IMG/VR virus record: IMGVR_UViG_3300027782_000047
Coordinates: 44,668 to 108,667 of that record
Length of the DNA stretch: 64,000 nucleotides
Direction: 5' to 3' (one strand)
Source of the DNA: a virus
Shown: positions 5,623 through 28,544 of the stretch, piece by piece
Layout: each line of letters opens with the position of its first letter
How positions within the stretch are numbered: the first letter of the stretch is position 1
Program-made: the position numbers and the translations under genes
The notes under the pieces: model-generated
The model's input: the letters and a program-made list of their open reading frames with translations, nothing else
Database searches by the model: none
Told to the model about the DNA's origin: nothing

Positions 5623-5856
5623 ATGTTTGTGAAAGTTGAAGGTACCAATTTTATTAAAGATACTGGCACAAACGCCCTGTTGATGACTGGGCGGAATGCC
5701 TTGGCTGAAAATGAAGCGAGGAAAAAACTTGCTGATAGGATGAATGGCAAAAATAATGAGATAAATAACTTGAAGAATCAGGTAGAAGAACTATCTTCTG
5801 ATATGAAGGAAATCAAGTCCCTACTAAACGCATTGCTGAAACAGAGTAAAGAATAA
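5623..5856 (+). CDS. Small conserved protein with C-terminal coiled coil
   Basis: 77 aa, 'KVEG..FIKD..TNAL' followed by heptads; usual position after the DUF4815 gene; TAATG overlap with the next gene. Confidence 0.7.
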
Positions 5857-8800
5857 TGGCACTCAATAACATTACAAGAACAAATACAATTGATGAATGG
5901 CGCATTCAGACTAATTTGGCAGCCAATGCGCTTAATCAAATTGAGACTGGTAATTACAATAAAACTAACGGAACATTCACCATTTCTTCAAATGGTGCAT
6001 TGTCTATTATCGCACAAGGAACTGCATTATCTGTTGCCAACGGTGCATTGTTTCAGAGTAATGTTTCTATTGGTAAAGAAATTGTTTTGGGTTCTGAAGT
6101 ATCACAAACCGGCAATTTATTGGTTGGTAATGCAGTTTACATTTATGGTCAAGCAACCGCTCTTTATGTTGCGAATAATATAATTTCTAATGGTAGTATT
6201 GTTGTTCAAAATACAATTAAAACAAACAATATAACAGCAAATTCAAATGTAGTTGTTGTTGGTACAGCAAACGTAGGATATCTAGGTGTAGCAAATAGTG
6301 GTTATGTTGGCACAACTTTAACTGTTGTTGGTAACACAGCAGTGGGTAATTTGACAACAGCAAATTCTGTCTTTGCTGATAATGCTAGAATTACAACAAA
6401 CATTGCTTTTGGTAGTTTACTACAGTCATATGCTAACGCTAATGCCTATGTGTCAAACACAGGTTCCGTTGTTGCTAACAATGCTAGATTCATTGCTAAC
6501 ACTTCTATTGGAGAAGAATTAACAACCATTACGGTGAATGCAACAAATGTTAGGGTAACAGCAAATGCTAATGCCGCACATTTCACAGCTTCACAATCGG
6601 TTGTTGCAGACACTGCTAGATTTGCAACGAATGTTGCTTTTGGTAGTTCGCTACAATCATATGCTAATGGAACTTCTTTTGTCGCAAATGGTGGATCTGT
6701 TGTTGCCAACACCGCTACAATTAATGCCAACACTTCCGTCGGTGGGCATATTGTTGTAACAAACTCGGTTGTTTCGGACACTGCTAGATTTATAACTAAT
6801 GTTGCTTTTGGCAGTTCACTAGAATCATATGCTAATGGAACTTCTTTTGTCGCAAATGGTGGATCTGTTGTTGCCAACACCGCTACAATTAATGCCAACA
6901 CCAGTGTTGGTGGACATATTGTTGTAACAAACTCGGTTGTTTCGGACACTGCTAGATTTGCAACGAATGTTGCTTTTGGCAGTTCTTTACAATCATATGC
7001 TAATGGAACTTCTTTTGTCGCAAATGGTGGATCTGTTGTTGCTAATAATGCTAGAATTAACGTCAACACTTCTGTTGGTCAAGAATTAACTACAGTTACG
7101 GTTAACGCAACAAACTCAAGAGTTTCTGGAAATGCTAATGCCGCACATTTTACTACTAGTGCTGGTGGTTCTGTTGTTGCAGATAGTTTAAGAATAACAA
7201 GCGCAACTCAATCTGCCAATATCAGCGGTAATGTTATTGCCGGAAATGTAAATACGCAGGGTATGGTATACGCTGGATCTATAGTATCCACTGGTATGTT
7301 AAAATCCTTTGATATGGAAGTAGATCAGGATCTTACTGTTAATCGTAATCTAACCGTAGATGGAAATTTTGTTCTGTCTGGTGATATTGTTTATGATACA
7401 GATAATTTTACCATTAGCACAGTAACTCCAGTAACAACTACAGGTGCTGGTTATTTTGGTGTTTTTAGGGGAAATACAATTGGTGGTGTTTTTGGTCATA
7501 ACGGCCTGGTAAATACTGACGCTAATGCATATATTCGTTGGAGTGCATCTGCTAACAACTGGCAAATTCGTGATGTATTCAACCCTAGTATATCAACGTC
7601 ATATTCTAAAATACTTACTGCAAATTTAATTACTGTAAGCACTTCATCCGTAAGTAATAATGATTTTGCATCTTCATGGTTAATGAAAAACTATGTTGAT
7701 AATGCAAATACAAATTTACAGAATTATATTGATGTTGCTAACACCAGCATGAAAAGTTATGTTGACACAGCAAATACCAATTTAAAGAGTTATGTTGATA
7801 CTGCAAATACAAATGTTGTTAGATATGTTAATACACAAGTTACATCCAATGTTCTGAATTCTGGTGCCGCAGTTGTTGTCGCACAAAACTTTGCTACTGC
7901 GGTTGATGATTCTGATCCGGGCAATGGTAACTTTAAATTTAATAATGCAACGATTGCATCAGCAACTTTTGCATACATGGACAACTTGGACACATATGCA
8001 CAAACAATTACTGGAATATTGTCCACATATGGCGATTCAACCAATGCAGTAAAAGGACATTTGAGATTCTCTGTCTTTGGTTCATCAACTACAAAATTTG
8101 CAGTTTTTGCTATTACATCATCAACAGCAGCCTCTGGTTACTATAAAGTTGGTCTGACTTATGTTTCTGGCGCAGGAACATTTAGCGGTGGCGATCTCGT
8201 TATGGTTCAATATTCTAGAGCGGGCAATTTGGGCGCACAGGGACCAACAGGAGCACAGGGACCAACAGGAGCACAAGGACCACAGGGACCTCAAGGACCA
8301 CAGGGACCTCAAGGAACAAATGGTACAATAGGTGTTAATGGTGCACCGGGCGGACCTGGACCAACAGGACCGCAAGGACCAACAGGAGCGCAAGGTGCTC
8401 AAGGTGCTCAAGGCGCTCAAGGACCAACAGGACCTCAAGGACCAACAGGAGCGCAAGGGCCACTTGGACCAACAGGACCTACAGGACCACTTGGACCAAC
8501 AGGACCGCAAGGACCACTTGGACCTACAGGACCAACAGGACCACTTGGACCTACAGGACCACTTGGACCGACAGGACCAACAGGACCAACAGGACCACAA
8601 GGTCCAACTGGTGCCCAAGGTCCGACTGGTGCCCAAGGAGCCCAAGGCGCACAGGGACCATCAGGAACAATTACTAATACATCTTATCAAATGACTTCTC
8701 TTGGTGTTGGTACAGCAGCCTCGGGAACAACTGGTGAAATTCGTGCTACTGGTGCTATAACTGCTGGTTATTCTGACGATAGATTGAAAACAAGACTGGG

Positions 8801-9086
8801 TAATATTGAAAATTCTCTTATTAAAATTGCAGCCATTTCTGGATTCTATTATGAGCCTAATGAAATAGCTCAAGATTTAGGATATGAATTAAAAAGAGAA
8901 ATTGGTGTATCCGCTCAAGAAATTCAAGCAGTTCTTCCAGAAGTTGTCGTTTCTGCTCCAGTAGACGATCAATATTTAACTGTTCATTATGAAAAACTTG
9001 TTCCTTTATTAATTGAAGCTATTAAAGAATTGATTAAAGGATTCAAAGATTTGAAAGATGAAGTTGACGAATTAAAGAAGAAATAA
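5856..9086 (+). CDS. Tail fibre protein: beta-helix-like repeats, collagen segment, C-terminal peptidase S74 intramolecular chaperone
   Basis: N-terminal 'TNTIDEWR'; N/A/T-rich repeats; about 48 G-X-Y triplets; 'YSDDRLK...[16 protein letters not shown]...[17 protein letters not shown]' S74 signature. Confidence 0.85.
6590..7070 (+). repeat. About three tandem 168-bp (56-aa) intragenic repeats
   Basis: CTGCTAGATT recurs at 6613, 6781 and 6949; unit TARF(A/I)TNVAFGSSL(Q/E)[18 protein letters not shown]..., near-identical at DNA level. Confidence 0.9.
8232..8664 (+). repeat. Collagen-like G-X-Y repeat ([12 protein letters not shown])
   Basis: ggaccaacagga/ggcgcacaa 9-nt periodicity. Confidence 0.95.
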
Positions 9087-9731: not shown

Positions 9732-11387
9732 ATGGCAAATACAGTAATTCAGTTAAAATATTCTACCGCAACCAATAAACCGCCTACACTTAACGTAGCG
9801 GAACCAGCATATTCTAACGTATCAAGTACTCTTTGGATTGATGATGGAACGGGTGTTGTAGCAATTGGTGGTAAAGCATATACCGATAAAATTGATGCCG
9901 CTGCCTCAGCCGCGACTGCTAACGTTCTTGTTAAGAGAGATACCACAGGTAACGCATCGTTCAATTACATTACTGCTAACATTGTTGGTAGTATTTTCGG
10001 TAACGCTACAAGCGCAGATAAGTGGTTTACTCCTAGAAACATTGGTGTTTCTGGTGATGCAACAGGTATTATTTCCGTTGATGGTACAGCAAACGCTAAC
10101 ATTCCATTAGTTCTTTCCAACTCTGGCGTGGCTGCTGGAAATTATGGCGGTGCAACAAATGCCGCAGTAATTTCTGTAGATACAAAGGGTCGTGTAACAT
10201 ACGCGGCTAACGTTCCTATTTCTTCTACACTAAACTTCTCGGGTGATGTTGGTGCGGCTCCAGGAACATTATCTCTAATCTCTGATACCCTAACAATCAA
10301 GGGTAGTTTAAACGGAGGTATTAGCACCAATGCTGTTGATGCAAACAATACGGTACTTGTTAATGTTGATAATACAGTTCTTAGAAATTCTGGAAATCAA
10401 TTTATTACAGGCGACTTGTCACTAACAGGAAGTTTGTTTATTGCTGGTAATACCACAACAGTAGATACTACAACAATATCAACCTCAGACTCTTTAATTA
10501 GACTAGCCGCAAACAACAATAGTGATCTTTTAGATATCGGTTTCTATGGCGTAGCTAATTCGAATACAAATGTAACAGGTAGCACAGTATATCACGGTCT
10601 TGTTCGTAGAGCCCAAGCCAATGAGTTCTTCTTGTTCAAAGGACTAACGACAGATCCAACCTCAAATGTTTTACCAACGGGTTCAATAAGAGGATCTAAT
10701 ACAGCAACACTGATTGCGAACTTAACTGCCGGTATGATTTCTGGTCTTGCTAACACTATTGGTGTTGTTGACGGCGGTACTGGAGTAGGCACATTTGCAG
10801 TTGGTAGCATTCTAGTTGGCGATGGAACAAATTCATTAAAAATACTCGCTAATACAGGTACTGCAGGAGCATATGGTTCAGCATCTAATACATTAATTGT
10901 CACTACGGATACTTATGGTCGTGTATCAGCTATTACAAATAGTGCAATTCAAATTAATGCATCTAATATTGTATCTGGCAACTTAGCAATTAATAGAGGC
11001 GGTACAAACAACGATTCTTACACAACTGGTGCCGCAGTATTCTATGATGGTACTGCAATCAAGACATTAGCAAATACTGGTACAGCGAACACTTATGGTT
11101 CAGCATCTTATGTTCCTGTTATTACAACTGATGCATTAGGTCGTGTTTCTGGTGTAAGCAACACCGCAATCAATATTGATACAAGCGCAGTCGTTTCCGG
11201 CACACTAGGTATCGCAAGAGGCGGTTCAGGAGCATCTTCATTCTCAATTAAGGGTGTTATTGTTTCTGATGCGGCATCAACAACTGGTGCATTGTCTGCA
11301 TTGACTTCACCAACCGAAGGTCATCTATTACAAATTAACTCATCTGGAGCACCAACTTTTGCACACCTAAATGGTGGAACATTCTAA
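9732..11387 (+). CDS. Tail fibre/shaft protein
   Basis: MANTVIQLK N-terminus; repeated 'YG.A...V...D..GRV' and 'L.I.RGG.G' fibre motifs; ends LNGGTF; AAGGA SD. Confidence 0.75.
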   Translation: MANTVIQLKYSTATNKPPTLNVAEPAYSNVSSTLWIDDGTGVVAIGGKAYTDKIDAAASAATANVLVKRDTTGNASFNYITANIVGSIFGNATSADKWFTPRNIGVSGDATGIISVDGTANANIPLVLSNSGVAAGNYGGATNAAVISVDTKGRVTYAANVPISSTLNFSGDVGAAPGTLSLISDTLTIKGSLNGGISTNAVDANNTVLVNVDNTVLRNSGNQFITGDLSLTGSLFIAGNTTTVDTTTISTSDSLIRLAANNNSDLLDIGFYGVANSNTNVTGSTVYHGLVRRAQANEFFLFKGLTTDPTSNVLPTGSIRGSNTATLIANLTAGMISGLANTIGVVDGGTGVGTFAVGSILVGDGTNSLKILANTGTAGAYGSASNTLIVTTDTYGRVSAITNSAIQINASNIVSGNLAINRGGTNNDSYTTGAAVFYDGTAIKTLANTGTANTYGSASYVPVITTDALGRVSGVSNTAINIDTSAVVSGTLGIARGGSGASSFSIKGVIVSDAASTTGALSALTSPTEGHLLQINSSGAPTFAHLNGGTF

Positions 11388-13141: not shown

Positions 13142-13149
13142 CATAAATA
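13142..13149 (+). promoter_or_regulatory. T4-type late promoter (CATAAATA)
   Basis: Intergenic ATAAATA core. Confidence 0.6.
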
Positions 13150-13172
13150 GATTGATAATTTAAGGATATTAA

Positions 13173-16103
13173 ATGCCAACGCAATTACAGTTAAGAAGAG
13201 GAAATACAGCCCAAACTGCAACATTTACTGGAGCAGTGGCTGAGATTACCGTTGACACAGATAAGAAAACAGTTGTTGTCCACGATGGCACAACAGCTGG
13301 TGGTTTCGCTCTCGCTTTAGAATCAGCGCAGTTAGACCAATTTGCATTCACAAAAGCAAACTTAGCGTTTGATAGAGCAAACTCGGCATTCGCTCAAGCA
13401 AATGCAGCCTATAGTACAGCTAATACAAAATTCAATTCTGCTGGTGGTACAATTTCTGGTAATGTAATTGTAACTGGTAATGTAACTCCAACAACGGATA
13501 ATATTTATAGTTTAGGTTCGTCATCTAATCGTTGGAAAGATTTGTTTGTTGGACCAGGTTCAATTAACATTGATGGCATTGTTATTGGAAATAATGGTGG
13601 GCAGATTGTAATCTCTGGCGCATCTGATTTTGTTTTTCAATCAACAACTGGTGCACCTTCCGTATCATCATCGGCTAGTGCTAACATTGCGCTTAATGCT
13701 TTCAATCAAGCCAATCTAGCATTCAATCAAGCAAATACTTCTTACGGTTCTTTTGCACAAGCTAACTTAGCATACACACAAGCAAACTCTGGTGTTGGTA
13801 TTGCTGTTTCTGCATTTGCTCAAGCCAACTTAGCGTTTACGGCTGCAAATAATGCCGTATCTACAGGACAAGCAAACGTTGGTGCTGGATTAATTACAGT
13901 TACTAGTGCTTATCAAGTAAACGTTGGTGCTGGCTTAATTGGCGTTACCTCGGCGTATGGAGCAAACGTTGGAGCGGCTAGAATTGCAGATGTTGCTTCT
14001 GGTCAGGCTAATGTTGGCGCAAGTGTAATTACATTAAACAATAATATTGGCAATGCATTCAATCAAGCAAATTTAGCATTTACGGCTGCAAATAATGCAG
14101 TTGACACTTGGGTTAGAAATCAAGCTAATGCCGCATATAATGCCGCAAACACAGCAGTAACAACTGGTCAAGCAAACGTAGGTGCTGGACTTATTAGTGT
14201 AACATCAGCATATCAAGCAAACGTTGGTGCTGGATTAATTAGTACCAAATCTGCATATGAAGCCAATGTAGGCGTTGCTATTGCATCAGGACAAGCAAAC
14301 GTAGGTAATGCAATTACTACTGTAACATCTGCTTATCAAGCAAACGTTGGTGCAAGTATAATTACAACTACTAATGCATACCAAGCAAACGCTGGTGCTG
14401 GTTTAATTACTGAAGTAGCCGCACGGCAAGCAAACGTTGGTGCAAGTGTTATTACTTTGTCTAATAACATAACTAATGTATTTAATCAGGCTAATCTAGC
14501 ATTTACGGCTGCAAACAATGCTGTAGATACTTGGGTTAGAAATCAAGCTAACTCCGCGTATGATAGAGCAAATTCATCATTTGCACAGGCTAACTTAGCA
14601 TACACCACAGCAAATGCCGCATTACCTAAAACTGGTGGTACAATTACTGGCGACTTGACAGTTTCGGGTAACTTATTTATTTCTGGTAATACAACAACAC
14701 TTAACGTTACCTCATTGAGTGTCTCGGATACTCTTATTCATTTAGGTAATGAAAATGAATCAGATTCGTTGGATATTGGTTTTATTGGTCACTATGCTAA
14801 TACGCCAAACAATCACACAGGTTTGATTCGTAAATTTACCGATGGTAGATATTACTTGTTTGATAACCTACTAACAAATGTTGAACCAACTAATATTGTT
14901 GATATTGCAAACACAAGAGTTGCAACATTAAGCGCAAATCTAATCACGAATGTAATCACATTGCGCGGACTTGATCCATTAGATTACTCAAATACAATTT
15001 ACAGTAATGCACAAGCAAATACTGGTGCCGCAGTTATTTCATTAACTTCTGCATATCAAGCAAATACTGGTGCAGCCGCTTTAGCTGGTCAAGCAAACGT
15101 AGGTGCAGGATTAATATCTGTAACATCAGCATATCAAGCAAATGTGGGTGCCGCTAGAATTGATGCGAATACGGCTAATACAACTTTAGCGGCTAGTATT
15201 GCTTCGGGTAGACTTGCGGATAACGCTAACGTTGGTGCAAGTATAATTACAGTTACAAATGCATATCAAGCAAACGTTGGTGCTGGTAGAATTGCTGATG
15301 TTGCGTCAGGACAAGCAAACGTAGGTGCTGGTTTAATTGCTGTAACATCTGCTTATCAAGCTAACGTTGGTTCAGCTAGAATTGATGCGAATACGGCTAA
15401 TACAACTTTAGCCGCTAGTATTGTTTCTGGTAGACAAGCTGATAATGCTAATCTTGGTGCTACTATAATTACAGTTACTTCTGCATATCAATCAAACGTT
15501 GGCGCAGGTTTAATTACAGTTACTTCTGCGTATCAATCGAATGTTGGTTCTGCAATCGCTCAAGGTCAAGCTAATACAGGTGCCGCAGTTATTTCATTAA
15601 CATCTGCATATCAAGCTAACGCTGGCGCTGGTGATATTACTGTTACCAATAACTATCAAGCAAATGTCGGTGCAGTAAACATTGCTAAAGTTGCAAAAGC
15701 TGGTGATGTAATGACTGGTGCTTTGTCTACCAGCGGTGCATTGATTGGTGCAAGTTTAACATCAAACACAATAGCAACAATTAACACAAATGCAGTTTAT
15801 GAATCTACTGCTGTAACAACTGCGGCGGCTACTCAATTTACATTAGATTCATTCTCAACAACTGCATATCGTTCAGCTAAATATCTCGTTCAGATTTCTA
15901 GCGGTTCATCATATGAATTACTAGAGATGACTTTGATTCATGATGGAACGACTGTGTATTTGTCTCAGTATGGTAACATTAAAACTGGTGCAACATTGGG
16001 TGTATTTGACGCTACAATTTCAACTGGCACTTTAAGTTTGTTAGCTACACCAAACAATGCAGTAACTACATTTAAGACAGCCATAACTCTGATACCGGCA
16101 TAA
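13173..16103 (+). CDS. Long fibre protein with Mtd N-terminal-like domain and QANVGAG coiled-coil repeats
   Basis: MPTQLQLRRGNTAQ..FTGAVAEITVDTDK.TVVVHDG.TAGG (major tropism determinant N-domain-like); C-terminal 'DSFS...YRSAKYLVQI...IHDGT.VY..QYG' module. Confidence 0.75.
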   Translation: MPTQLQLRRGNTAQTATFTGAVAEITVDTDKKTVVVHDGTTAGGFALALESAQLDQFAFTKANLAFDRANSAFAQANAAYSTANTKFNSAGGTISGNVIVTGNVTPTTDNIYSLGSSSNRWKDLFVGPGSINIDGIVIGNNGGQIVISGASDFVFQSTTGAPSVSSSASANIALNAFNQANLAFNQANTSYGSFAQANLAYTQANSGVGIAVSAFAQANLAFTAANNAVSTGQANVGAGLITVTSAYQVNVGAGLIGVTSAYGANVGAARIADVASGQANVGASVITLNNNIGNAFNQANLAFTAANNAVDTWVRNQANAAYNAANTAVTTGQANVGAGLISVTSAYQANVGAGLISTKSAYEANVGVAIASGQANVGNAITTVTSAYQANVGASIITTTNAYQANAGAGLITEVAARQANVGASVITLSNNITNVFNQANLAFTAANNAVDTWVRNQANSAYDRANSSFAQANLAYTTANAALPKTGGTITGDLTVSGNLFISGNTTTLNVTSLSVSDTLIHLGNENESDSLDIGFIGHYANTPNNHTGLIRKFTDGRYYLFDNLLTNVEPTNIVDIANTRVATLSANLITNVITLRGLDPLDYSNTIYSNAQANTGAAVISLTSAYQANTGAAALAGQANVGAGLISVTSAYQANVGAARIDANTANTTLAASIASGRLADNANVGASIITVTNAYQANVGAGRIADVASGQANVGAGLIAVTSAYQANVGSARIDANTANTTLAASIVSGRQADNANLGATIITVTSAYQSNVGAGLITVTSAYQSNVGSAIAQGQANTGAAVISLTSAYQANAGAGDITVTNNYQANVGAVNIAKVAKAGDVMTGALSTSGALIGASLTSNTIATINTNAVYESTAVTTAAATQFTLDSFSTTAYRSAKYLVQISSGSSYELLEMTLIHDGTTVYLSQYGNIKTGATLGVFDATISTGTLSLLATPNNAVTTFKTAITLIPA

Positions 16104-16133: not shown

Positions 16134-17627
16134 TTGGCATCTAATCAAGACTTCATAGTAAAGAATGGGCTAACTGTTGGCTCATCGCAAGTGATTGCCG
16201 CCAATGGTCGTTGGGTTGGTGTCAGCACTGGTTTAATAGGACCTCAAGGCGCACAGGGTGCTCAAGGTCCAACAGGAGGCACTGGACCTCAAGGTGCTCA
16301 AGGGCCTGCTGGTCCTACTGGACCTCAAGGTGCTCAGGGAGCAACAGGCGGTACTGGTCCTACTGGTCCTCAAGGAGCCCAAGGCGCACAAGGAAATTCT
16401 GGCGGTACAGGACCAACAGGACCCCAAGGCGCACAGGGACCAGCAGGACCAACTGGACCTCAAGGAGCACAGGGAACACAAGGACCAACTGGACCACCAG
16501 GAGGAACTGGCGCTCAAGGCGCACAGGGTCCAGCTGGACCAACAGGACCAACAGGACCACAGGGCGCACAAGGAGCCCAAGGCGCACAGGGAGTTGCAGG
16601 ACCAACTGGTCCATTGGGACCAACAGGTCCGACTGGCGCACAAGGCGCACAAGGCGCACAGGGACCAACAGGACCAACAGGACCTTCGGGAGCAACTATT
16701 GATAATACAAACAGAACATTAAACAGTTTGACGTTCACTGGCCAAGGTGGAAATTCTGGTAATGCACCATCAAGTTATTATTACTCATTACATCAAAAAA
16801 CTGGTCCATGGACAGGCCCATATCCAGATTTATCAATCAATTATCATACTGGCATTTCGTTTGGCGCTCTTGCAGGTTATGAAGGTTATTCTTTTTGGGA
16901 TGATGCTCCCCAAAGCACATTAGTTTTTAGAATTAATGGCTCCAGCAATTATTCATACAAATATTACTGGCAATATACAAACACAACTGGTTATTACTCA
17001 GATACAAATAGTTGGCACTTGATACCAAATACTGGTAGTTCATATGGTTCAATGCAATTACAAGGCTCAAGAAATAGCTGGCGTGGTATTCATTTTTATG
17101 ATGGCGGAAATATTCCTCATTTGATGTTTGATGGTGGCGCAAACGGTGGAATTTATTTTGAATCTGGCCGATGGGCGATGTATTATAGTTACGGAAATGC
17201 TAGTTGGGGAATTAATACATCAACAACTTCCTCTGGTGTTGCATTGTATGCATCTGGAGACATATACTCAACGGGTAACATCACAGCATATTCTGACGGA
17301 AGAAAAAAAGATAATGTAGTTGCTATAAAGAATGCATTAGATGGAGTATTAAAATTAAGAGGTGTAACATATACCTGGAATGACAAAAAAGAATCTGATA
17401 TCGGTTATGGTAAAACAGAGATTGGTGTTATTGCTCAAGAGGTTGAAAAAGTATTTCCAGAAGTTGTTAAATACATGGAAGACGTTGATGTGTATTCAGT
17501 TGCTTATGGTAACATCACAGCAATATTGATTGAAGCTATAAAAGAACAACATTCTATTATAACTAGTCAAAATGATAGATTAGAGAGAATAGAAAACTTT
17601 ATTAATAATTACTTGGAGAAAAAATAA
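16134..17627 (+). CDS. Collagen-like tail fibre paralogue 1 with S74 chaperone (TTG start)
   Basis: [14 protein letters not shown]-terminus, about 50 G-X-Y triplets, aromatic-rich tip, '[24 protein letters not shown]'. Start inferred from alignment with the paralogues. Confidence 0.85.
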
Positions 17628-18058
17628 TGGCGCTAATCAGAGATTATGAATTACCAGGAACTGGTGTAACTGTTGCTAATGCATATCATGTAGTAACAAA
17701 AGTTGATGTGGATAAAAGAACACAAGATATTTCTGCACCTCCAGATCCATCAAGACCCGGTGGCTTTACTGCTGGTCATCAAGAAGTTGGAAAAGAATTA
17801 TTTTGGAAAGCTGGTTATATTGGAACTATTTCCATCACAATATGGAAAGATGCACAAGCAAGAAATGATGGATTACAGCCTTTAGGATTTTTGGGAATGC
17901 ATCCATCAGATAATAAGTATGGTGCAAGTCTATCACAAGATGTAAAGAATTATCAACCTAGATTTTTCATTGATGTAGACTCACAAGACAATTATGTAAC
18001 TCAAGCATATGCTTATCTAAAAACAACACCGTACTATTTGAACTCAACAGAAGTTTAA
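17627..18058 (+). CDS. Hypothetical protein, probable fibre assembly/tip-associated
   Basis: TAATG-coupled to fibre 1; ends 'QAYAYLKT..Y', a pattern seen in small fibre-associated proteins. Confidence 0.6.
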   Translation: MALIRDYELPGTGVTVANAYHVVTKVDVDKRTQDISAPPDPSRPGGFTAGHQEVGKELFWKAGYIGTISITIWKDAQARNDGLQPLGFLGMHPSDNKYGASLSQDVKNYQPRFFIDVDSQDNYVTQAYAYLKTTPYYLNSTEV

Positions 18059-18065
18059 TTCTTAA

Positions 18066-19481
18066 ATGGCATCTAATCAAGACTTCATCGTAAAGAACGG
18101 CTTAACAATAGGCGGTTCGCAAGTAATTGCTGCCAATGGTCGTTGGGTTGGGGTCACCACTGGTCTTATCGGTGCCACTGGTCTTCAAGGACCCGCAGGA
18201 CCGCAAGGCGCAACAGGACCGACCGGACCTCAGGGCGCACAAGGAACTCAAGGCGCACAGGGAGTTGCAGGACCTCAAGGCGCACAAGGACCAGCCGGCG
18301 GCACTGGACCAACTGGACCACAAGGCGCTCAAGGTCCTGCTGGCGGTACAGGACCAACGGGTCCTCAAGGAGCCCAAGGTGCTCAAGGTTCTGCTGGACC
18401 TCCGGGACCGACTGGCGCTCAAGGTCCTACAGGCGCTCAAGGTCCTACTGGCGCTCAAGGGCCAACCGGTGCTACAGGACCTACTGGACCAACAGGCGGC
18501 AATTCAGGAAATGATACTTACGTTGCTTGGGGTCAATTAGAAGCACATAGCACTTATACGAATTTTAATTCATCAGTAAATTATTGGGGCTTCACTTATG
18601 TTCAAGGAAGCACTAATGCTCCAAATTCAACATCATCTCAATGGTACCGAGGAAGATTTTCCCTAGGAAATGCATATGGTAAAAATTATGGTGGTAGCGA
18701 TTATTGGTTAGAACTAGCTTGGCCAAGAGAAAATCCAACCACAGCAGGACATATGTGGAGAAGAAATGGAGAAGCTGGTGGCGTTGGCTCTTGGACACAA
18801 GTTGGTGCAAACATTATTGGTACAGGATCTGCTACATCAGATTATAGAGCACCAATCTTCTACGATTCTAATGATACCGGATATTATGTAAATCCTAATA
18901 GTGGTACAAATTTAAAGTTTCTTCAAGTTTCTGGTGCATGGGCCAGTTCGCCTTTTGGATCAGCTCATGAACAATTTACAATTCGTACAAACTATCCATC
19001 ATACACACTTCGTAATACCGATACTGGATATTATTGGTTAGTACATCACGCTGCTGATTACACTATTAATTGGTACGGTGGTGGAGGTGGCGTAGATGGA
19101 TCTTCATGGAATAGAAACTTCTACGTTGATATGAGTGGTAACATAACAGCAAGAGGAAACGTTACAGCATATTCTGATGTTAGATTAAAAATCAATATTG
19201 TGACCATCAACAATGCAATAGATAAAGTAAAACGACTAAGAGGTGTTTATTTTGATTGGATTGATTCTGGTGAGCATTCCCTAGGAATGATTGCACAGGA
19301 AGTTGAAGAAGTTCTTCCAGAATTGGTTATGACTAATACGGAATGTAAAACATTCACACAAGAAGTACTTAATGTAACAAAGTCGCTAGATTATTCCAAA
19401 ATAGTTTCAGTTTTAGTGGAAGCAATCAAAGAACAACAAAAACAAATTGAAGAACTAAGAGAGATTATTAATGGCCAGTAA
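18066..19481 (+). CDS. Collagen-like tail fibre paralogue 2 with S74 chaperone
   Basis: Same N-terminus; G-X-Y segment; W/Y-rich tip; '[24 protein letters not shown]'. Confidence 0.85.
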
Positions 19482-20934
19482 TCAAGATTTTATTATAAAG
19501 AACGGCCTTACAATAGGCAGTTCTCAAGTAATTGCCGCCAATGGTCGTTGGGTTGGAGTTAGCACTGGTCTTATTGGTCCACAAGGTCCTCAAGGAGTTG
19601 CAGGACCGCAAGGCGCACAAGGTCCGACTGGTGCTCAAGGGCCTGCTGGTCCCACTGGCGCTCAAGGACCAACAGGAGGCACTGGACCAACGGGACCGCA
19701 AGGCGCACAAGGAAATGCTGGCGGTACTGGACCCACTGGCCCTCAAGGAGCACAAGGAGTACAAGGTCCCGGTGGCGCAACAGGACCAACAGGACCTCAA
19801 GGAGCACAAGGACCAACAGGAGGCACTGGACCAACGGGACCGACAGGACCCACTGGACCTCAAGGCGCTCAAGGAGCACAGGGACCAACTGGTGCTACAG
19901 GACCTACTGGTGCTCAAGGCGCACAGGGCGCTCAAGGTGGAACAGGACCTACAGGCTCTTTTGTTGGATATAGTTTAGCAACACCAGGTGGAAGAAATCA
20001 AGATACCGGTAGAAATACATATGGTAATTTATCACATTTTTCAACATACACTTACACTAAAACACACGGTCTCACCTATCCATATCATTTACAAGTAACT
20101 AATGGTGGTCAAGGTTTCGAAATAGCCGCTGATTGGATTAATACGGGTTCAACTCCTTTACGTGTTAGAAGTTTAAGAGACTGTTGCCAAGACTGGAGTT
20201 CTTGGACAAGTATTGCTACATCAGGAGAATCATTTACTAATAACGTAGATTTAAGAGCACCAATCTTCTACGACAGCAATGATACTGGATATTACCTTGA
20301 TCCTAATACTACAAGTGATTCCGCACTAAGAATTCGCGGCGGAGCGTTGCACGGGCCGAATGTAACTTGGAATACCTATCTTTTAGTTGGTGGTGATGGA
20401 AGACAGAATTATATTAATAATAGCATCACAGCATCTGTCTGTTCAACGAACGGAAACTTGCACATGGATGCAGCCTCCGGTTTAGACATGTATTTAAATT
20501 ATTATGATGGAGCTAATATTCAATTAGGTAACGGAGCAAATGGTATTATAGGTGTTATTAGTGCCGCAGGTAATTTGACCATGAATGGTAACATTACTGC
20601 ATACTCAGATATAAGATTAAAAACTAATATTAAAACAATTCAAAATGCATTAGGTATGGTTAGTAGAATGCGCGGTGTTTATTTTGATTGGATAGAAAAC
20701 GGAAATCAGTCTATTGGATTGATTGCTCAAGAAGTGCAAGAAGTTATTCCAGAATTAGTTTTAGAGAGTGTAGTTAAAAATCCTCCATCTTTTCCTGGCG
20801 AAGAGACACCAGAAAAAACAATTTTATCAGTTGATTATGGAAAGATAACTTCTATTTTGATTGAAGCAATCAAAGAACAGCAAAAACAAATTGAAGAACA
20901 AAATAAAAGAATCGCTTTTTTAGAGAATAAATAA
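19471..20934 (+). CDS. Collagen-like tail fibre paralogue 3 with S74 chaperone
   Basis: Same N-terminus; G-X-Y segment; distinct tip; '[24 protein letters not shown]'. Confidence 0.85.
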
Positions 20935-21168
20935 ATGAAAGCCTTTATTATTGAATTTTTACTAAAAGATCCAATCGCAAAAGTATCATCTATTATGGAA
21001 GATATAAAACGTGAGGCTTTATGTGATATGGAGGAAAGAAATAGAAGATTGGAAATTTGCAATAAATGTGAAAATCTAAAAAATAATTTTTGTTTAAAGT
21101 GTTATTGTTATATGCCAGCAAAATCTTTTATTAAAAATAAAAGTTGCCCATTAAACTTACACACTTAA
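20935..21168 (+). CDS. Small Cys-rich putative metal-binding protein (DUF6171-like)
   Basis: RRLEICxxC-x7-CxxCxC-x4-K-x7-CP pattern. Confidence 0.55.
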   Translation: MKAFIIEFLLKDPIAKVSSIMEDIKREALCDMEERNRRLEICNKCENLKNNFCLKCYCYMPAKSFIKNKSCPLNLHT

Positions 21169-21203
21169 ATTTTATTAACCCGCCAACATTTTAGGAGAAA
21201 ATA

Positions 21204-21572
21204 ATGGCTATTACATATACCTGGAAAGTCACCAGTCTAAAAACTAAGAACGAAGGTGCCAATCAAAACGCAGTTGTGCAAACATACTGGCAAAAGATTG
21301 GTACCGATGAAAATGGTAACGTAGGATCATTTTCTGGCGCAACACCATTCACATCAACAACTATGCCTGAAGGAAATGTGTTTGTTCCATTTGAAGAACT
21401 AACCGAAGAAGTTGTTCTTGAATGGATTAAAGATGTTGTTACCGGCTCTTATGAAACGCATGTGAATGGAAAAATTCAAGAACAAATTGACCAACATGTT
21501 AATCCTGTTTCCGAAGCGCAGATGCCTTGGGCACCACCAGCATCCAATACATCACCGAGCATACCCGCATAA
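21204..21572 (+). CDS. Conserved phage fibre-associated protein
   Basis: 'MAITYTWKV...FVPFEELTEEVVLEWI...MPW' family; AGGAG SD. Confidence 0.65.
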   Translation: MAITYTWKVTSLKTKNEGANQNAVVQTYWQKIGTDENGNVGSFSGATPFTSTTMPEGNVFVPFEELTEEVVLEWIKDVVTGSYETHVNGKIQEQIDQHVNPVSEAQMPWAPPASNTSPSIPA

Positions 21573-21623
21573 AAGACGAGATATATATTAGATAGTTTAT
21601 TAATTCATTATAAGGAGTTTGAC

Positions 21624-21830
21624 ATGAATGATATGATGCAACCACAACAACAAGAAGAACCACAAGTTACACTAACGCTTAAAGCAAGTTGGTTAAACGT
21701 GATTATAGCTGGCTTGGAAGAAATTCCACATAAGTTCAGTAGACAAGTTATTGATTCTGTTTCTCAACAAGCAAGAGCGCAGTTAGAAAACAAACCTCAA
21801 GGACCACTGTCATCTAAAGTAATTAACTAA
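21624..21830 (+). CDS. Small hypothetical protein
   Basis: AAGGAG SD; 'L.EIPHK.S..VI..QQA..Q' motif, typical of fibre-chaperone-like small proteins. Confidence 0.6.
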   Translation: MNDMMQPQQQEEPQVTLTLKASWLNVIIAGLEEIPHKFSRQVIDSVSQQARAQLENKPQGPLSSKVIN

Positions 21831-21832
21831 TT

Positions 21833-22405
21833 ATGAACGGCGAATGGGCCTACTTCAAAAGTAGATTTACTAAAGAGCAATGTGATTTCATTTTAGAGGA
21901 AGGTTTAAAATTACCTTCTAAAAAAGCATCTATGGGTGTTTCAAATGAAATACATGATGACGAATATCGCAGAAGCGACATTCGGTTTATTCATCAAGAA
22001 CCCAAATTCCAATTTCTCTTTGATGAGATTTGGAAAATGGCAATTCAAGCAAATCACGACTTCTTCAATTTTCATATAACTAGATTAAGTTTTGTGCAAT
22101 TGGCTGAATATTCATCTGAATATCAAGGCGAATATAAAAGACACCACGATGTGTTTTGGATGAATGGTGATCCACACTTTCATAGAAAACTTACCTGTGT
22201 AATTCAGTTGACTGATCCGACAACTTATGAAGGCGGTGATTTTGAGATGTATGACTTGTCGCAAAATCCACCAGATAAGGAAGAAATACGCCAGCAAGGC
22301 ACTGCAATATTTCTTCCATCTTTCGTAAGTCATGCCGCATTGCCTGTGACAGAAGGAACAAGACATTCATTAGCAGTATGGATGGAAGGACCTAAGTGGA
22401 GATAA
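21833..22405 (+). CDS. 2OG-Fe(II) dioxygenase, prolyl-4-hydroxylase/PKHD-like
   Basis: HxD (RHHD), RKLT..IQL, YEGGDF, distal H (VSHAALPVTEGTRHSL..W) with the 2OG-binding Arg. Confidence 0.9.
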   Translation: MNGEWAYFKSRFTKEQCDFILEEGLKLPSKKASMGVSNEIHDDEYRRSDIRFIHQEPKFQFLFDEIWKMAIQANHDFFNFHITRLSFVQLAEYSSEYQGEYKRHHDVFWMNGDPHFHRKLTCVIQLTDPTTYEGGDFEMYDLSQNPPDKEEIRQQGTAIFLPSFVSHAALPVTEGTRHSLAVWMEGPKWR

Positions 22406-22406
22406 T

Positions 22407-22961
22407 ATGAAAACTAATATGATTGTGATTGATGAGTTCTATAATAATCCAAATGATGTGAGAGAGTTTGCTTTAGCACAAGAGTTTGATGTTACTGGCA
22501 ATTGGCCAGGGAATAGAACAAAAACTTTTATCAATGAAAGCACAAAAGAAACCATACAGAAAATACTGCAAGATGTATCTGGAAATGTTACAGACTGGCA
22601 AGCAAATGATGGGTATACAGGATGTTTTCAACTAACAACTTCAATGGATAGAAGTTGGATTCATGCTGATTCATATAACACTTGGGCAGGTGTTTTATAT
22701 CTTACTCCTGATGCTCCACTATCTGGCGGCACAGGAATATTCAGATACAAAAAAACTGGTAGTATGATGGAAGATGGCACAGATTTATCTGGCGTCACAC
22801 AAGACATGACCAAGTGGGAACTTGTTGATAGAGTTGGAAATGTTTACAATAGATTAGTATTGTATCGTGGAAATAACTATCATATGTCTTTAGATTATTT
22901 TGGTAAAGACAAGGAAGATGGTAGATTATTTCAACTATTTTTCATAACAACAGAATATTGA
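22407..22961 (+). CDS. 2OG-Fe(II) oxygenase-like protein (DUF6445-like)
   Basis: 'IDEFY.NP..VR', WIHAD, AGVLYL..GGT, NRLVLY..HMS, GRLFQLFF: HxD...H...R triad. Confidence 0.75.
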   Translation: MKTNMIVIDEFYNNPNDVREFALAQEFDVTGNWPGNRTKTFINESTKETIQKILQDVSGNVTDWQANDGYTGCFQLTTSMDRSWIHADSYNTWAGVLYLTPDAPLSGGTGIFRYKKTGSMMEDGTDLSGVTQDMTKWELVDRVGNVYNRLVLYRGNNYHMSLDYFGKDKEDGRLFQLFFITTEY

Positions 22962-22962
22962 T

Positions 22963-23718
22963 ATGAAAATATGCAGAGTTATCTTCTCCACAAACAGACC
23001 AGAATTCTTAATTCCAACTTTAGAATCACATCAAAAGTATATTGACTTTGGCGATCATGAGGTCTATGGCATATTCATAGATGATTATCCAAAAGATAGA
23101 AATGATAAATTGATTATAGATTTGGCTAAAAGAAGTGGTTTCAATGAAGTTGTTTTACACGAAGTAAATGAAGGATTAACACCTACTTGGACTGAGTTGT
23201 GGAATTATCTAGCAACACAAGACTATGACTACATCTGGCACCATGAAGATGATGTAGTATTTGGTGAACCAATAAAAATACAATCTCTGATAGATTTCTT
23301 AGAAGAAAATAAAGAGTTTTGCCAAATCAATCTCAAAAGAAATCCATGGTATGATTTTGAGTTGAACAAACCAGCAATAACTTGGGAAGATAAATTCTTT
23401 AAAGAATACCGGTATGATGTTAGGGATGACTATTTCTGGACAATGGCATCATTATATCCAGCTTGGGTAACAAAAGAGCCAGTAAAAGAAGTTGAAGGTT
23501 GCAATTTGGCTGAGTATCCAGTAATGAAATACTTTAGAGAGCAACACAAAATGAAGATGGCCATTCTTAAAAATCAAGATGGAAGCAATCTTGTGGAACA
23601 CATTGGTGTATACTCTCAAGGCAAAAGAGTGCTTGAAGATGAGCCTGGATGGGAAAGATTTAAGTGGTTTGATCCTAATAAAAAATATGATTCCAAGACT
23701 GGTACTTTAATAGTATAA
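22963..23718 (+). CDS. GT-A fold (family 2-like) glycosyltransferase
   Basis: 'STNRPEFL..TLES', IDD, 'YIWHHEDD' metal motif, C-terminal 'VEHIG'. Confidence 0.7.
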   Translation: MKICRVIFSTNRPEFLIPTLESHQKYIDFGDHEVYGIFIDDYPKDRNDKLIIDLAKRSGFNEVVLHEVNEGLTPTWTELWNYLATQDYDYIWHHEDDVVFGEPIKIQSLIDFLEENKEFCQINLKRNPWYDFELNKPAITWEDKFFKEYRYDVRDDYFWTMASLYPAWVTKEPVKEVEGCNLAEYPVMKYFREQHKMKMAILKNQDGSNLVEHIGVYSQGKRVLEDEPGWERFKWFDPNKKYDSKTGTLIV

Positions 23719-23747: not shown

Positions 23748-24704
23748 ATGGCTAAACCCACAACTAGAGCAACTTTCAAAGACTACTGCCTACGCAGATT
23801 AGGTCATCCAGTAATCCAAATCAATGTGGATGATGACCAAGTTGAAGATAGAATTGATGATGCACTACAATTCTTTGAAGACTATCATTTTGATGGTTGC
23901 GAACAAATGTATATGAAGCATCAAATCACTCAAGCTGATATTGATCGCAGATGGATTTATTGCCCAGATCCAGTAATTTTTGTTACTGGAATCATACCAT
24001 TTGACCAGTCATCTTCCTCAGTCAATATGTTTGACTTGCGTTATCAGCTACGATTGCATGATTTGTATGACTTTACCTCAGTGTCTTATGTGTCATATGA
24101 AATTACCATGCAACACATTCGCACATTGAATCTGTTGTTCTCTGGTACACCATTGTTCAGATTCAATCGTAAACAAAATAGAATTTTCTTAGATATTGAT
24201 TGGTCTAGAGATTTACAGGTTGGTCAGTATGTTGTTGTAGAATGCTATCGTGCGATGCGCCCAGATACAGTTACTTTGACTGGTACAATAACCGGCACAA
24301 CAAGTAACAATACTTTGACTGGAACAGGAACAATATTTGACCAAGAAGTTATTGAAAACGACTTCATCACACTATCTAGTGGTCAAGAAGTTCAAATTCG
24401 TACAATCAATTCTCCAACAAGTATTACTATTGCAAGTAGTTTAACAACAAACATTACAGCTAACACAGCAACAAAAGCTGGTGTTACGGATGTTTGGAAT
24501 GATAAGTTTTTGAAGACTTATGCCACAGCTAAAATTAAATATCAATGGGGTACCAATCTTTCTAAGTTTGCTGGCATTCAAATGCCTGGTGGTGTAACAT
24601 TAGATGGTCCAAGAATAATGCAAGAAGCACAAGCTGAGTTGGACAAACTAGAAGAAGAAATGTATACCATCAGCAGTATGCCTAGCGAAATCTTTGTGGG
24701 CTAA
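23748..24704 (+). CDS. gp13: Neck protein gp13
   Basis: 'YCLRRLG.PVIQINVDDDQVEDRID.ALQ', 'QWGTNLSKF.G.QMPGGVTLDG'. Confidence 0.92.
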   Translation: MAKPTTRATFKDYCLRRLGHPVIQINVDDDQVEDRIDDALQFFEDYHFDGCEQMYMKHQITQADIDRRWIYCPDPVIFVTGIIPFDQSSSSVNMFDLRYQLRLHDLYDFTSVSYVSYEITMQHIRTLNLLFSGTPLFRFNRKQNRIFLDIDWSRDLQVGQYVVVECYRAMRPDTVTLTGTITGTTSNNTLTGTGTIFDQEVIENDFITLSSGQEVQIRTINSPTSITIASSLTTNITANTATKAGVTDVWNDKFLKTYATAKIKYQWGTNLSKFAGIQMPGGVTLDGPRIMQEAQAELDKLEEEMYTISSMPSEIFVG

Positions 24705-26630: not shown

Positions 26631-27728
26631 ATGGCAAAAAAGCTATCTCAATTAACCGCTATCTCTAATGTTGGAAATATACCAGCAAACATTATATTTG
26701 GAATTTCCAACACAGCAAGCGGAACATCAAACACTATATCACTGTTATCATTAACAACACATCTCGATTCAACATTTGCTACTGATATTGCTTCATTGGC
26801 AAACGTGGGTGCTGGACTTATATCAACTAAAGCCGCTTATGAAGCGAATGTCGGCGTTGAAGTAGCCGCAAGGTCAGCAAACGTAGGAGTTGCTAGAATT
26901 ACTGATGTTGCATCAGGACAAGCAAACGTGGGTGCAGGTATTATTACAGTAACGTCTGCTTATCAAGCAAATACTGGTGCAGCCGCATTAGCCGGTCAAG
27001 CAAACGTTGGCGTTGGTTTAATTAATGCTAAATCAATATCGGAAGCAAATGTAGGTGTTGCTATTGCATCAGGTCAAGCTAACGTTGGTGTAGGATTAAT
27101 TACAATTACTGGTGCATATCAAGCAAACGTAGGCGCTGGGCTTATAACAACTAAAGCCTCTTATGAAGCAAATGTAGGTGTTGCTATTGCATCAGGACAA
27201 GCTAACGTTGTTGTTGCTATTGCATCTGGACAAGCTAACGTGGGTGCTGGATTATTATCTACTAAATCAGCATACGAAGCTAATGTTGGTGTAGAAGTGG
27301 CAAATAGGGCAGCAAACGTAGGTGCAGTTGTTATCACATTAACAAATAATATTAACAATGCCTACGAACAAGCCAATAGTGCATACACAGCCGCTAATAC
27401 TGCATTGAATATATCACAAAATATTCAAATACAAGATTACACATTGCAGTTGACAGATCGTGGAAAACATATCTATAGCACAAATACACAAATTCAAAAA
27501 ATTACAATTCCAAACGCTGGCGTTGTTGCATGGCCAACGGGCACAGTAATTGATATTGTTCTTAATGGCACTGGAAGAATTAACGTTGCTACATCAAATG
27601 ATGTTACCCTTTATGTTGCTAACAATTCTACAGTAAGAGGATATGCAAATGTGTATCCTCGAGGTTGGGCTACACTATTGTATGTTAGTGGAAATACTTG
27701 GTATATCAAAGGGCAAGGTGTAGATTGA
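26631..27728 (+). CDS. Fibre/whisker-like protein with QANVG coiled-coil repeats
   Basis: MAKKLSQL N-terminus; more than 15 (Q/E)ANVG repeats; C-terminal 'YTLQLTDRGK..P.GT.I..ATL......W.I.G' domain. Confidence 0.7.
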   Translation: MAKKLSQLTAISNVGNIPANIIFGISNTASGTSNTISLLSLTTHLDSTFATDIASLANVGAGLISTKAAYEANVGVEVAARSANVGVARITDVASGQANVGAGIITVTSAYQANTGAAALAGQANVGVGLINAKSISEANVGVAIASGQANVGVGLITITGAYQANVGAGLITTKASYEANVGVAIASGQANVVVAIASGQANVGAGLLSTKSAYEANVGVEVANRAANVGAVVITLTNNINNAYEQANSAYTAANTALNISQNIQIQDYTLQLTDRGKHIYSTNTQIQKITIPNAGVVAWPTGTVIDIVLNGTGRINVATSNDVTLYVANNSTVRGYANVYPRGWATLLYVSGNTWYIKGQGVD

Positions 27729-28109: not shown

Positions 28110-28544
28110 ATGGAACAACTAATTCAACAACTAAAAGTAATCTTGGGTACCAATTTTGCTCTGTATCTAAAATCACATGGCTTCCATTGGAATATTGAGG
28201 GCGCTAATTTTCCACAATATCACGATTTTCTTAATGGATTCTACACCGAAGTTTTCAATCAAAACGATTCTATTGCGGAACACATCCGTCAATTAGACAG
28301 TTATGCTCCAGGATCATTAGAAAGAATGTTGGAATTGGCTGACTTGGAAGAATCACAAAATATTCCAATGGCACTTGCTATGATGGCTGAATTGAAACGT
28401 GATAACGATAGATACATAATTCATCTCCGTGCTGGTATTGTTGCAGCCGAACAAGCCGATGAGCCAGCGATTGGTAACTTTTTGCAAGAACTTTTGGGCG
28501 CTCACCAAAAGAAAGCATGGATGTTAAGAAGTATTATTAAATAA
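28110..28544 (+). CDS. dps: Dps/ferritin-like DNA-protection protein
   Basis: 'SHGFHWNIEG.NF.QYH.F....Y.E.....D.IAE.IR', 'HQK.AWML'; ferroxidase residues intact. Confidence 0.9.
   Translation: MEQLIQQLKVILGTNFALYLKSHGFHWNIEGANFPQYHDFLNGFYTEVFNQNDSIAEHIRQLDSYAPGSLERMLELADLEESQNIPMALAMMAELKRDNDRYIIHLRAGIVAAEQADEPAIGNFLQELLGAHQKKAWMLRSIIK

Follow-up and report, generated by a model that had tools for sequence, protein, structure and literature searches.

A candidate late-expressed unit for tailoring collagen-like tail fibres in a T4-like phage, and its possible link between DUF6445 oxygenases and Gly-X-Gln collagen

How are collagen-like helices rich in Gly-Pro-Thr stabilised in viruses? Viruses have an excess of Thr-containing triplets, Gly-Pro-Thr among them (PMC11923368), and a passage of the same paper, citing Bann 2000, states that (Gly-Pro-Thr)10 folds only with glycosylated threonines; the question arises because such model peptides do not fold unmodified. 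It is posed by a locus in the IMG/VR virus record IMGVR_UViG_3300027782_000047, from which 64,000 nucleotides (positions 44,668 to 108,667 of the record; hereafter the window) were analysed. At positions 16,134 to 23,718 of the window, genes for collagen-containing fibres are followed by a trio of genes encoding two 2-oxoglutarate (2OG)/Fe(II) oxygenases, of the PF13640 and DUF6445 families, and a glycosyltransferase (GT). In the original prediction, made from the sequence alone, it was proposed that this phage hydroxylates and/or glycosylates its own fibres. That proposal has now gained support of a comparative kind, namely linkage that persists through rearrangements, late-promoter motifs, an LH3-like neighbouring enzyme in relatives, gene fusions, covariation with collagen composition, and bacterial operons. 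On these comparisons we consider it likely that the trio belongs to a late-expressed unit tailoring the phage's own collagen-like tail fibres, with the DUF6445 enzyme and the GT acting on Gly-X-Gln triplets, the PF13640 enzyme probably acting on Pro at the X position, and glycosylation of Thr being possible.

The layout of the region was as predicted, in that three collagen-fibre genes, with a fourth starting at 5856, precede the oxygenase, oxygenase and GT genes and then gp13, all open reading frames (ORFs) being located where they had been placed (Table 1). The genes of the region are all on the + strand and close-packed, and the 1-2 nt spacing described for the trio was measured as gaps of 2, 1 and 1 nt between a 68-amino-acid (aa) ORF (orf68), the PF13640 gene, the DUF6445 gene and the GT gene. 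Genes for gp13, gp14 and gp15 were assigned downstream of the trio using PHROGs. The window is part of a viral contig of 108.7 kb, estimated to be 62% complete, and these two oxygenase genes are the sole PF13640 gene and the sole DUF6445 gene of that contig. With gp13, gp14, gp15, both terminase subunits and the major head protein recognisable by sequence, the phage is a T4-like myovirus. Its proteins are distant from those of cyanomyoviruses (at most 46% identity), and no psbA was found in the 108.7-kb contig.

The composition of the collagen tracts was examined with regard to the residues that each enzyme could use. The fibres encoded from 16134, 18066 and 19471 are paralogues that have in common an N-terminus, a collagen tract, a variable head and a Peptidase_S74 intramolecular chaperone. 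Together with the fourth collagen protein they contain 184 Gly-X-Y triplets, among which GPT (52, the commonest), GAQ (48) and GPQ (27) account for 69%; these three had been said to make up almost all of the tracts, and they dominate them to this lesser degree. Pro at the X position, as described earlier, occurs in 97 of the 184 triplets, but the most common Y residue is Gln (79) and not Thr (69), which had been overlooked. Pro at Y, in the X-Pro-Gly context used by canonical prolyl 4-hydroxylases (P4Hs), is found in 4 of the 184 triplets, as rare as had been cautioned, and Lys at Y, the residue of LH3/COLGALT1-type modification, in none. The accompanying caveat that the chemistry would have to be non-canonical was right. 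The candidates named with it (X-Pro 3-hydroxylation, Thr glycosylation or sugar tailoring) are indeed non-canonical, but omit Gly-X-Gln as a target for DUF6445 and the GT, and the chemistry is probably neither classical Pro or Lys modification nor solely the Thr route.

The catalytic motifs are kept in all three enzymes, from which the trio is predicted to be catalytically intact. The proposed enzyme types were confirmed, both oxygenases scoring above their Pfam cut-offs and the GT, for which the Pfam match is weak, being assigned to GT-A by an AlphaFold2 (AF2) model. The PF13640 (2OG-FeII_Oxy_3) match reached 54.3 bits against a cut-off of 27 (E = 3e-14), and the iron triad H104-x-D106 and H167 together with the 2OG-binding basic residue R177 is invariant in 10 aligned sequences; the top PDB sequence match of this enzyme is PhyA (6t8m), at a weak E of 0.019. 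The DUF6445 (PF20043) match reached 50.3 bits against a cut-off of 24 (E = 4e-13), and H86-x-D88, H159 and R173 are invariant in the alignment. Its AF2 model (predicted local distance difference test score, pLDDT, 93.3) is a double-stranded beta-helix with an HxD...H...R site, for which the nearest structures are OGFOD1 (Z = 14.3), PHD (13.9), a bacterial P4H (13.8) and the PBCV-1 collagen P4H (13.1), with PhyA also among the top matches; NgTET1 scored 10.8 and AlkB homologues 10.8-11.2. The GT (Glycos_transf_2, 25.7 bits against a cut-off of 23.3) gave a model with pLDDT 96.7 and a GT-A Rossmann-like fold, and E95-D96-D97, D40-D41 and H213 are invariant in 24 sequences. Foldseek matched this model to SpsA, TarS and GnT-I with probability 1.0 (TM score about 0.55); these matches are generic for GT-A enzymes and were uninformative on the acceptor. 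Alignment profile searches with the GT and DUF6445 against PDB sequences gave no useful match, and neither megablast with the region nor tblastn with the GT gave a hit among 50,697 phage records. The GT family has many metagenomic homologues and is known from uncultured contigs only.

We assessed the linkage of the PF13640 enzyme to collagen fibres by an alignment-based scan of viral contigs, which collected 313 relatives, with 63 new loci forming 36 groups at 85% identity. A collagen ORF was found within four genes of the PF13640 orthologue (55-69% identity) in 26 of the 36 groups. At least five gene orders were encountered, including fibres, oxygenase, DUF6445 and GT as here; oxygenase, GT1 and fibres; fibres, oxygenase, a second PF13640 enzyme, a GT2-TPR-DUF6445 fusion (TPR, tetratricopeptide repeat) and a GT2-methyltransferase; and a fibre, oxygenase and gp13.

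Among cultured phages, the best PF13640 orthologues (44-46% identity) are those of S-CAM9, S-PRM1 and S-8S53/55/56, which sit just downstream of giant tail fibres with collagen and S74 domains and adjoin a second PF13640 enzyme. The next gene is annotated as hypothetical (S-CAM9 gp218, L096:7555-9396) and has homologues in S-PRM1, S-8S53/55/56 and the Roseobacter phage CRP-6 (gp58). The first domain of its product is COLGALT1-like (E = 1e-19), the second resembles the LH3 glucosyltransferase and mimivirus R699 (E about 1e-32), and the third resembles the mimivirus L230 lysyl hydroxylase (E = 1e-8), so that by sequence the protein looks like a complete collagen-lysine tailoring enzyme. The collagen fibres of S-CAM9-type phages carry Lys at 37-44% of Y positions, and in CRP-6, an unrelated podophage, a collagen fibre containing 26 G-x-K triplets precedes the same LH3-like enzyme. 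As the LH3-like gene stands beside an orthologous oxygenase and a Lys-rich fibre, these relatives appear to possess a recognisable collagen-lysine tailoring system; no paper on a cyanophage lysyl hydroxylase system was found in the literature searched. It was noted that the 143-aa protein encoded behind fibre 1 has an S-CAM9 homologue that is also encoded behind a collagen fibre (L096:6019-6393; 35% identity, E = 2e-25). The second PF13640 oxygenase of S-CAM9 and those of gene clusters beside psbA were considered as well and are not close relatives of the window enzyme.

DUF6445 and the GT were found to be coupled to each other. Among 28 groups of the GT, DUF6445 is adjacent in 22, fused in 1 and absent in 4, with 1 group uninformative (23 of the 27 informative groups adjacent or fused). 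Fusions of DUF6445 to the window GT family occur in loci L052 and L077, and in 572-aa proteins it is fused through a TPR linker to a GT2 family domain that has no detectable relationship to the window GT. LH3 likewise has its GT domains ahead of the oxygenase, and peptide binding is typical of TPR units. A full-length tblastn match to the GT (46% identity) upstream of gp13 at L082:5563-6315 has no open frame of at least 50 aa and may be a disrupted copy.

The enzyme content was then compared with the residue at the Y position. In collagens beside modules of an oxygenase and a GT1-type enzyme, Thr makes up 53-91% and Gln no more than 6% of the Y residues, and in those beside DUF6445-containing modules Gln makes up 37-70%; the GT::DUF6445 fusion of L077 follows a collagen with 90% Gln at Y. 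In seven contigs with GT-DUF6445 far from the fibres, Gln accounts for 38-72% of Y residues in 13 of the 15 collagen ORFs, the other two being Y-Pro-rich. DUF6445 is missing throughout nine Thr-type contigs, of which one is 92% complete. The fraction of Gln at Y was 0.23-0.90 with a window-type DUF6445 (n = 17 contigs) and 0.00-0.23 without it (n = 13) (Mann-Whitney test; p = 2e-6), and seven lineages separated completely from four on the same measure (p = 0.003), the lineages being set by gene order and not by a tree. Three apparent exceptions (G017, L131, L144) were uninformative because their contigs are 2-27% complete, and psbA, tried as a cyanophage marker for separating host lineages, was uninformative too. 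From these comparisons the enzyme set appears to track the collagen Y residue, Gln being accompanied by DUF6445, Thr by GT1 and Lys by the LH3-like enzyme, a relationship that is new here. One further contig (G002, the contig of L071) contains at about 98-107 kb two collagen ORFs with Pro at 47-57% of Y (GTP, GSP, GPP), flanking a weak PF13640-alignment match at about 104.1-104.3 kb (see also L174 and L175); these Y-Pro collagens, of the classical P4H substrate type, may represent a fourth residue/enzyme pairing.

An intriguing question is whether DUF6445 accompanies Gln-rich repeats outside these phages. Homologues with 42-45% identity occur in Pandoraea and Roseateles terrae, and a (Gly-X-Gln)n protein is encoded 1.3-2 kb upstream on the same strand in 11 of 11 Pandoraea loci with enough upstream sequence and in Roseateles. 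This repeat protein has 95-100% Gln at Y (PF01391 E = 5e-25 in Roseateles), with X residues mostly V, M, P and A in Pandoraea. At two annotated loci the genes behind the repeat gene are, in order, one with a weak likeness to PP-loop ATPases, DUF6445, a small ORF and one for a radical SAM enzyme, and the Pandoraea operon looks like a peptide-modification operon; the loci are L193:8407-12111, L202:7856-12146, where a LysR regulator adjoins, and nine others among L194-L205. Thiothrix and Thiolinea have, inserted between dnaE and rnhB-lpxB, an island that combines DUF6445 with a GT2-methyltransferase and a collagen protein of 524 aa, and that in Thiolinea (L216:8934-14308) comprises a 179-aa ORF, a DUF6445 with about 150 extra N-terminal residues, the GT2-methyltransferase, a 165-aa ORF and the collagen protein. 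The closest cultured DUF6445 is that of phage DSL-LC02, where it lies with a transferase-like gene and a methyltransferase/radical-SAM protein gene between a collagen-like protein (43% Gln, 47% Thr and 1% Pro at Y) and a tail fibre. No paper mentioning DUF6445 was found in the literature searched.

The order of variable collagen fibres, DUF7936, orf68, oxygenase, DUF6445, GT and gp13 is fixed in 31 related contigs. Enzyme identity among the closest relatives is 90-99%, against 28-91% for the fibres, which also differ in number. Late-promoter motifs flank the enzyme unit here at 20927 and 23714, in relatives the equivalent of the 20927 motif, a perfect TATAAATA in L033, is placed about 35 nt upstream of DUF7936, and ATAAATAG lies upstream of orf68 in relatives L034 and L037; the motif form found at 13142 also precedes the genes starting at 9732, 23748, 30234 and 31928. 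By analogy with T4 biology, late motifs at the unit would mean that it is co-expressed with the virion proteins and not with replication. Scans for sigma-70 promoters and terminators gave background level only. The nearly invariant stretch at 21573-21623, upstream of orf68, does not match the late-promoter consensus and may be a regulatory element or a structured leader.

Taken as a fibre-tailoring unit, the system could work as follows. Fibre chains and enzymes would be made together late in infection, and hydroxylation would take place before or during trimerisation, which would be nucleated by the C-terminal S74 chaperone. The oxygenases would use Fe(II), 2OG and O2 on side chains of the Gly-X-Y tracts, the PF13640 enzyme probably on X-position Pro and DUF6445 on Gly-X-Gln triplets. 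Gln itself would be the simplest target of DUF6445, because Gly is constant in all collagens and DUF6445 follows only the Gln-rich ones. With a nucleotide sugar as donor, the DxD glycosyltransferase would then glycosylate the new hydroxyl, Thr at Y, or both. The probable advantage would be a stable, hydrated triple helix in a collagen with no Lys and almost no Pro at Y, and effects on adsorption or shielding are possible too; a stabilising role is plausible because (Gly-Pro-Thr)10 folds only when glycosylated. A more specific version, put forward only tentatively, is that DUF6445 is a peptidyl-glutamine hydroxylase for Gly-X-Gln repeats and that the GT-A enzyme glycosylates hydroxyglutamine, as part of a wider rule pairing Y residues with enzymes. 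No ribosomal-protein precedent for hydroxyglutamine was found in the literature searched.

The general idea has precedents in LH3/COLGALT1, mimivirus L230/R699, the PBCV-1 P4H, BclA and the predictions of Iyer et al. 2010, whereas Gln hydroxylation, if real, would be new chemistry. In LH3/PLOD3 with COLGALT1, as in mimivirus L230/R699, a 2OG/Fe(II) hydroxylase makes a hydroxyl on the Y residue and a GT-A enzyme glycosylates it, as is proposed here, and GT-to-oxygenase fusions of the same domain order exist for DUF6445. The window collagens differ in lacking Lys, the partner residue apparently being Gln, and the trio has none of the lysyl-hydroxylase, GT25 or PLOD-GT domains of Pfam that S-CAM9 gp218 has. 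PBCV-1 vCPH and Dictyostelium PhyA are small, soluble oxygenases of the PF13640 or PHD-like type whose substrates are cytoplasmic proteins, but their sequence similarity to the window enzymes is marginal and the canonical Y-Pro substrate is nearly absent here. PhyA acts on Skp1, after which the GT-A enzyme Gnt1 glycosylates the hydroxyproline. Mycobacteriophage GTs glycosylate the C-termini of the phage's own capsid and tail-tube proteins, a system with no oxygenase step and no collagen. Bacillus BclA and Riftia cuticle collagen, together with (Gly-Pro-Thr)10, offer GPT-rich helices without hydroxyproline in which Thr glycosylation is stabilising, according to the relevant passage of PMC11923368. 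They need no oxygenase, whereas two are conserved here, and the phages with near-pure Thr-type collagen use a GT1-type enzyme and have no DUF6445. For predicted bacterial operons that pair dioxygenases with collagen-like or tail-collar proteins, Iyer et al. 2010 (PMC2938197) had already proposed the co-encoded collagen-like proteins as targets of the linked 2OG oxygenases; those were beta-hydroxylase/PhyH families with sulfotransferases, the cyanophage arrays were read as secondary metabolism, and the work contains no DUF6445-GT combination and no association with Gln-type collagen.

Several observations weigh against the assignment of the trio to the fibres. Ten of the 36 PF13640 groups have no collagen nearby, although 4 of these are on contigs starting within about 1.3 kb upstream, and the adjacency near gp13 may partly be inherited synteny. 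The PF13640 enzyme does not cleanly track X-position Pro, and this link is weak, given that an orthologue is missing from the complete genome G001 despite its GPQ collagen. For DUF6445 the structural gradient is shallow, with small-molecule and sugar oxygenases beginning at about Z 12.4, so that its likeness to protein prolyl hydroxylases is a lead and not proof. Distant DUF6445 homologues lie in sugar-gene clusters of S-SSM7 and Sf-FS3 with no real collagen gene, and Methylophilaceae and actinomycete DUF6445 loci have no collagen nearby; because of such members, the DUF6445 family as a whole is not dedicated to collagen. Many contigs have the GT-DUF6445 pair away from fibres, beside psbA/psbD or nucleotide-metabolism genes. 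The use of gene order to set the lineages counts against the covariation, and the Thr-type and Gln-type phages may infect different hosts, so host differences could contribute to it.

It was on account of the fibre-distant contexts of the pair that rival readings were considered. The enzymes might remodel a surface glycan of the host (LPS, i.e. lipopolysaccharide, O-antigen or another envelope polysaccharide) in the manner of cyanophage genes for 'cell-wall synthesis and modification', and lie near fibres by genome organisation. We regard this as unlikely. The DUF6445 homologues of S-SSM7 and Sf-FS3 do lie among UDP-glucose dehydrogenase, GT11 and GT25 genes, and in many contigs the pair stands beside psbA/psbD in a cluster with further GT2s, another PF13640 enzyme and a methyltransferase, clusters that are read in this way in the literature (PMC12801897). 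However, other phages have the psbA-side enzyme set immediately after three collagen fibres, the enzyme content can be predicted from the collagen composition even with the genes far apart, and the bacterial islands contain little beyond the enzymes and a collagen-like protein. The late-promoter motifs, and the TPR-linked and direct fusions resembling the protein-modifying LH3, also speak for the fibres as substrate.

That the three genes are functionally unrelated, their neighbourhood being inherited synteny of the variable region upstream of gp13, is given only a slim chance: the linkage outlasts changes of order, partner GT and genomic position (the PF13640 cassette of S-CAM9 adjoins uvsW), there are two independent GT::DUF6445 fusions, and the genes are linked in bacterial contexts too, even if some adjacency is expected because most PF13640 orthologues and most fibres are near gp13, and cyanophages have many scattered 2OG oxygenases. 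It is likewise quite improbable that the substrate of the oxygenases and the GT is a sugar or small molecule, whether a secondary metabolite or a derivative of a nucleotide sugar; such a role was proposed for the Syn9 tandem dioxygenase arrays (Iyer et al. 2010; PMC2938197). Syn9 gp52 is a DUF6445 homologue, and HygX, EvdO, AviO1, KanJ and PolD score Z 10.6-12.4 against the DUF6445 model, but the top structural matches are protein prolyl hydroxylases, no biosynthetic scaffold genes adjoin the trio, and the TPR fusion and the collagen covariation point to protein. Hypermodification of phage DNA in the style of TET/JBP plus a glycosyltransferase is suggested by two contexts of the pair, which has as neighbours a C5 DNA methylase and a thymidylate-synthase-like gene in L076 and a dCMP deaminase in L088. 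This reading is very improbable, since no Tet_JBP domain was found with Pfam, TET and AlkB homologues score below prolyl hydroxylases, late promoters are the wrong timing for replication-coupled DNA modification in T4-like phages, and the collagen covariation and bacterial operons argue against it.

Table 1. Features of the fibre-to-gp13 region, in window coordinates.
Feature	Position	Strand	Family or match
Fourth collagen-containing fibre, 1076 aa; 50 triplets at residues 790-939; tail-fibre C-terminus	5856..9086	+	
Late-promoter-like motif CATAAATAG before the fibre gene run	13142..13150	+	
Repeat-rich fibre protein, 976 aa, first of the late gene run	13173..16103	+	phrog_9648 tail protein (N-terminus)
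Collagen fibre 1: common N-terminal anchor, 52 triplets, head domain, S74 intramolecular chaperone	16134..17627	+	PF01391 + Peptidase_S74
Small conserved fibre-associated protein, 143 aa	17627..18058	+	found in relatives
Collagen fibre 2: 38 triplets and S74	18066..19481	+	PF01391 + Peptidase_S74
Collagen fibre 3: 44 triplets and S74	19471..20934	+	PF01391 + Peptidase_S74
ATAAATA late-promoter-like motif, end of fibre 3	20927..20933	+	
DUF6171 small Cys-rich ORF, between fibre 3 and DUF7936	20935..21168	+	
DUF7936 protein, opens the conserved enzyme unit	21204..21572	+	
Intergenic stretch GATATATATTAGATAGTTTATTAATTCATTATAAGGAG, near-invariant among close relatives	21573..21623	+	
68-aa ORF (orf68), conserved with the unit; no family match	21624..21830	+	
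PF13640 prolyl-hydroxylase-type 2OG/Fe(II) oxygenase; H104, D106, H167, R177	21833..22405	+	
DUF6445 2OG/Fe(II) oxygenase; H86, D88, H159, R173	22407..22961	+	
GT-A glycosyltransferase; D40-D41, E95-D96-D97, H213	22963..23718	+	
Perfect T4-type late promoter TATAAATA for gp13, overlaps the GT stop codon	23714..23721	+	
gp13-type head-tail adaptor, downstream boundary of the module	23748..24704	+	phrog_211, E = 4e-42

Additional features were noted around the unit. The DUF6171 ORF stands between the late-promoter-like motif at 20927 and the enzyme unit, and had no match in any of the related loci L014-L044. Long QANVGAG-type repeat arrays are common to the proteins encoded at 13173-16103 and 26631-27728, on either side of the fibre-to-gp15 block. 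A gene for a Dps-like DNA-binding protein lies at 28110-28544 between the small and large terminase genes, and it may be speculated that iron handling by such a protein could matter to a phage encoding Fe(II) oxygenases.

Collagen-like fibres are widespread in phages and bacteria, and the pairing of modules with Y residues makes the stabilisation of their helices directly testable. If the tentative glutamine chemistry is true, it would be a third hydroxylate-then-glycosylate chemistry of collagen, beside those of hydroxylysine and hydroxyproline, and phage and bacterial collagens would carry enzymes matched to their Y residue, namely DUF6445 with a GT-A/GT2 enzyme for Gln, GT1 for Thr and an LH3-like enzyme for Lys. 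The module and the pairing would give a candidate function to the uncharacterised DUF6445 family and to hypothetical proteins of cultured cyanophages, and a possible new protein modification of glutamine, for which the (Gly-X-Gln)n operon of Pandoraea would be a simple bacterial model. Decoration of the fibres could also affect host recognition, and the system may be of relevance to the engineering of recombinant collagens.

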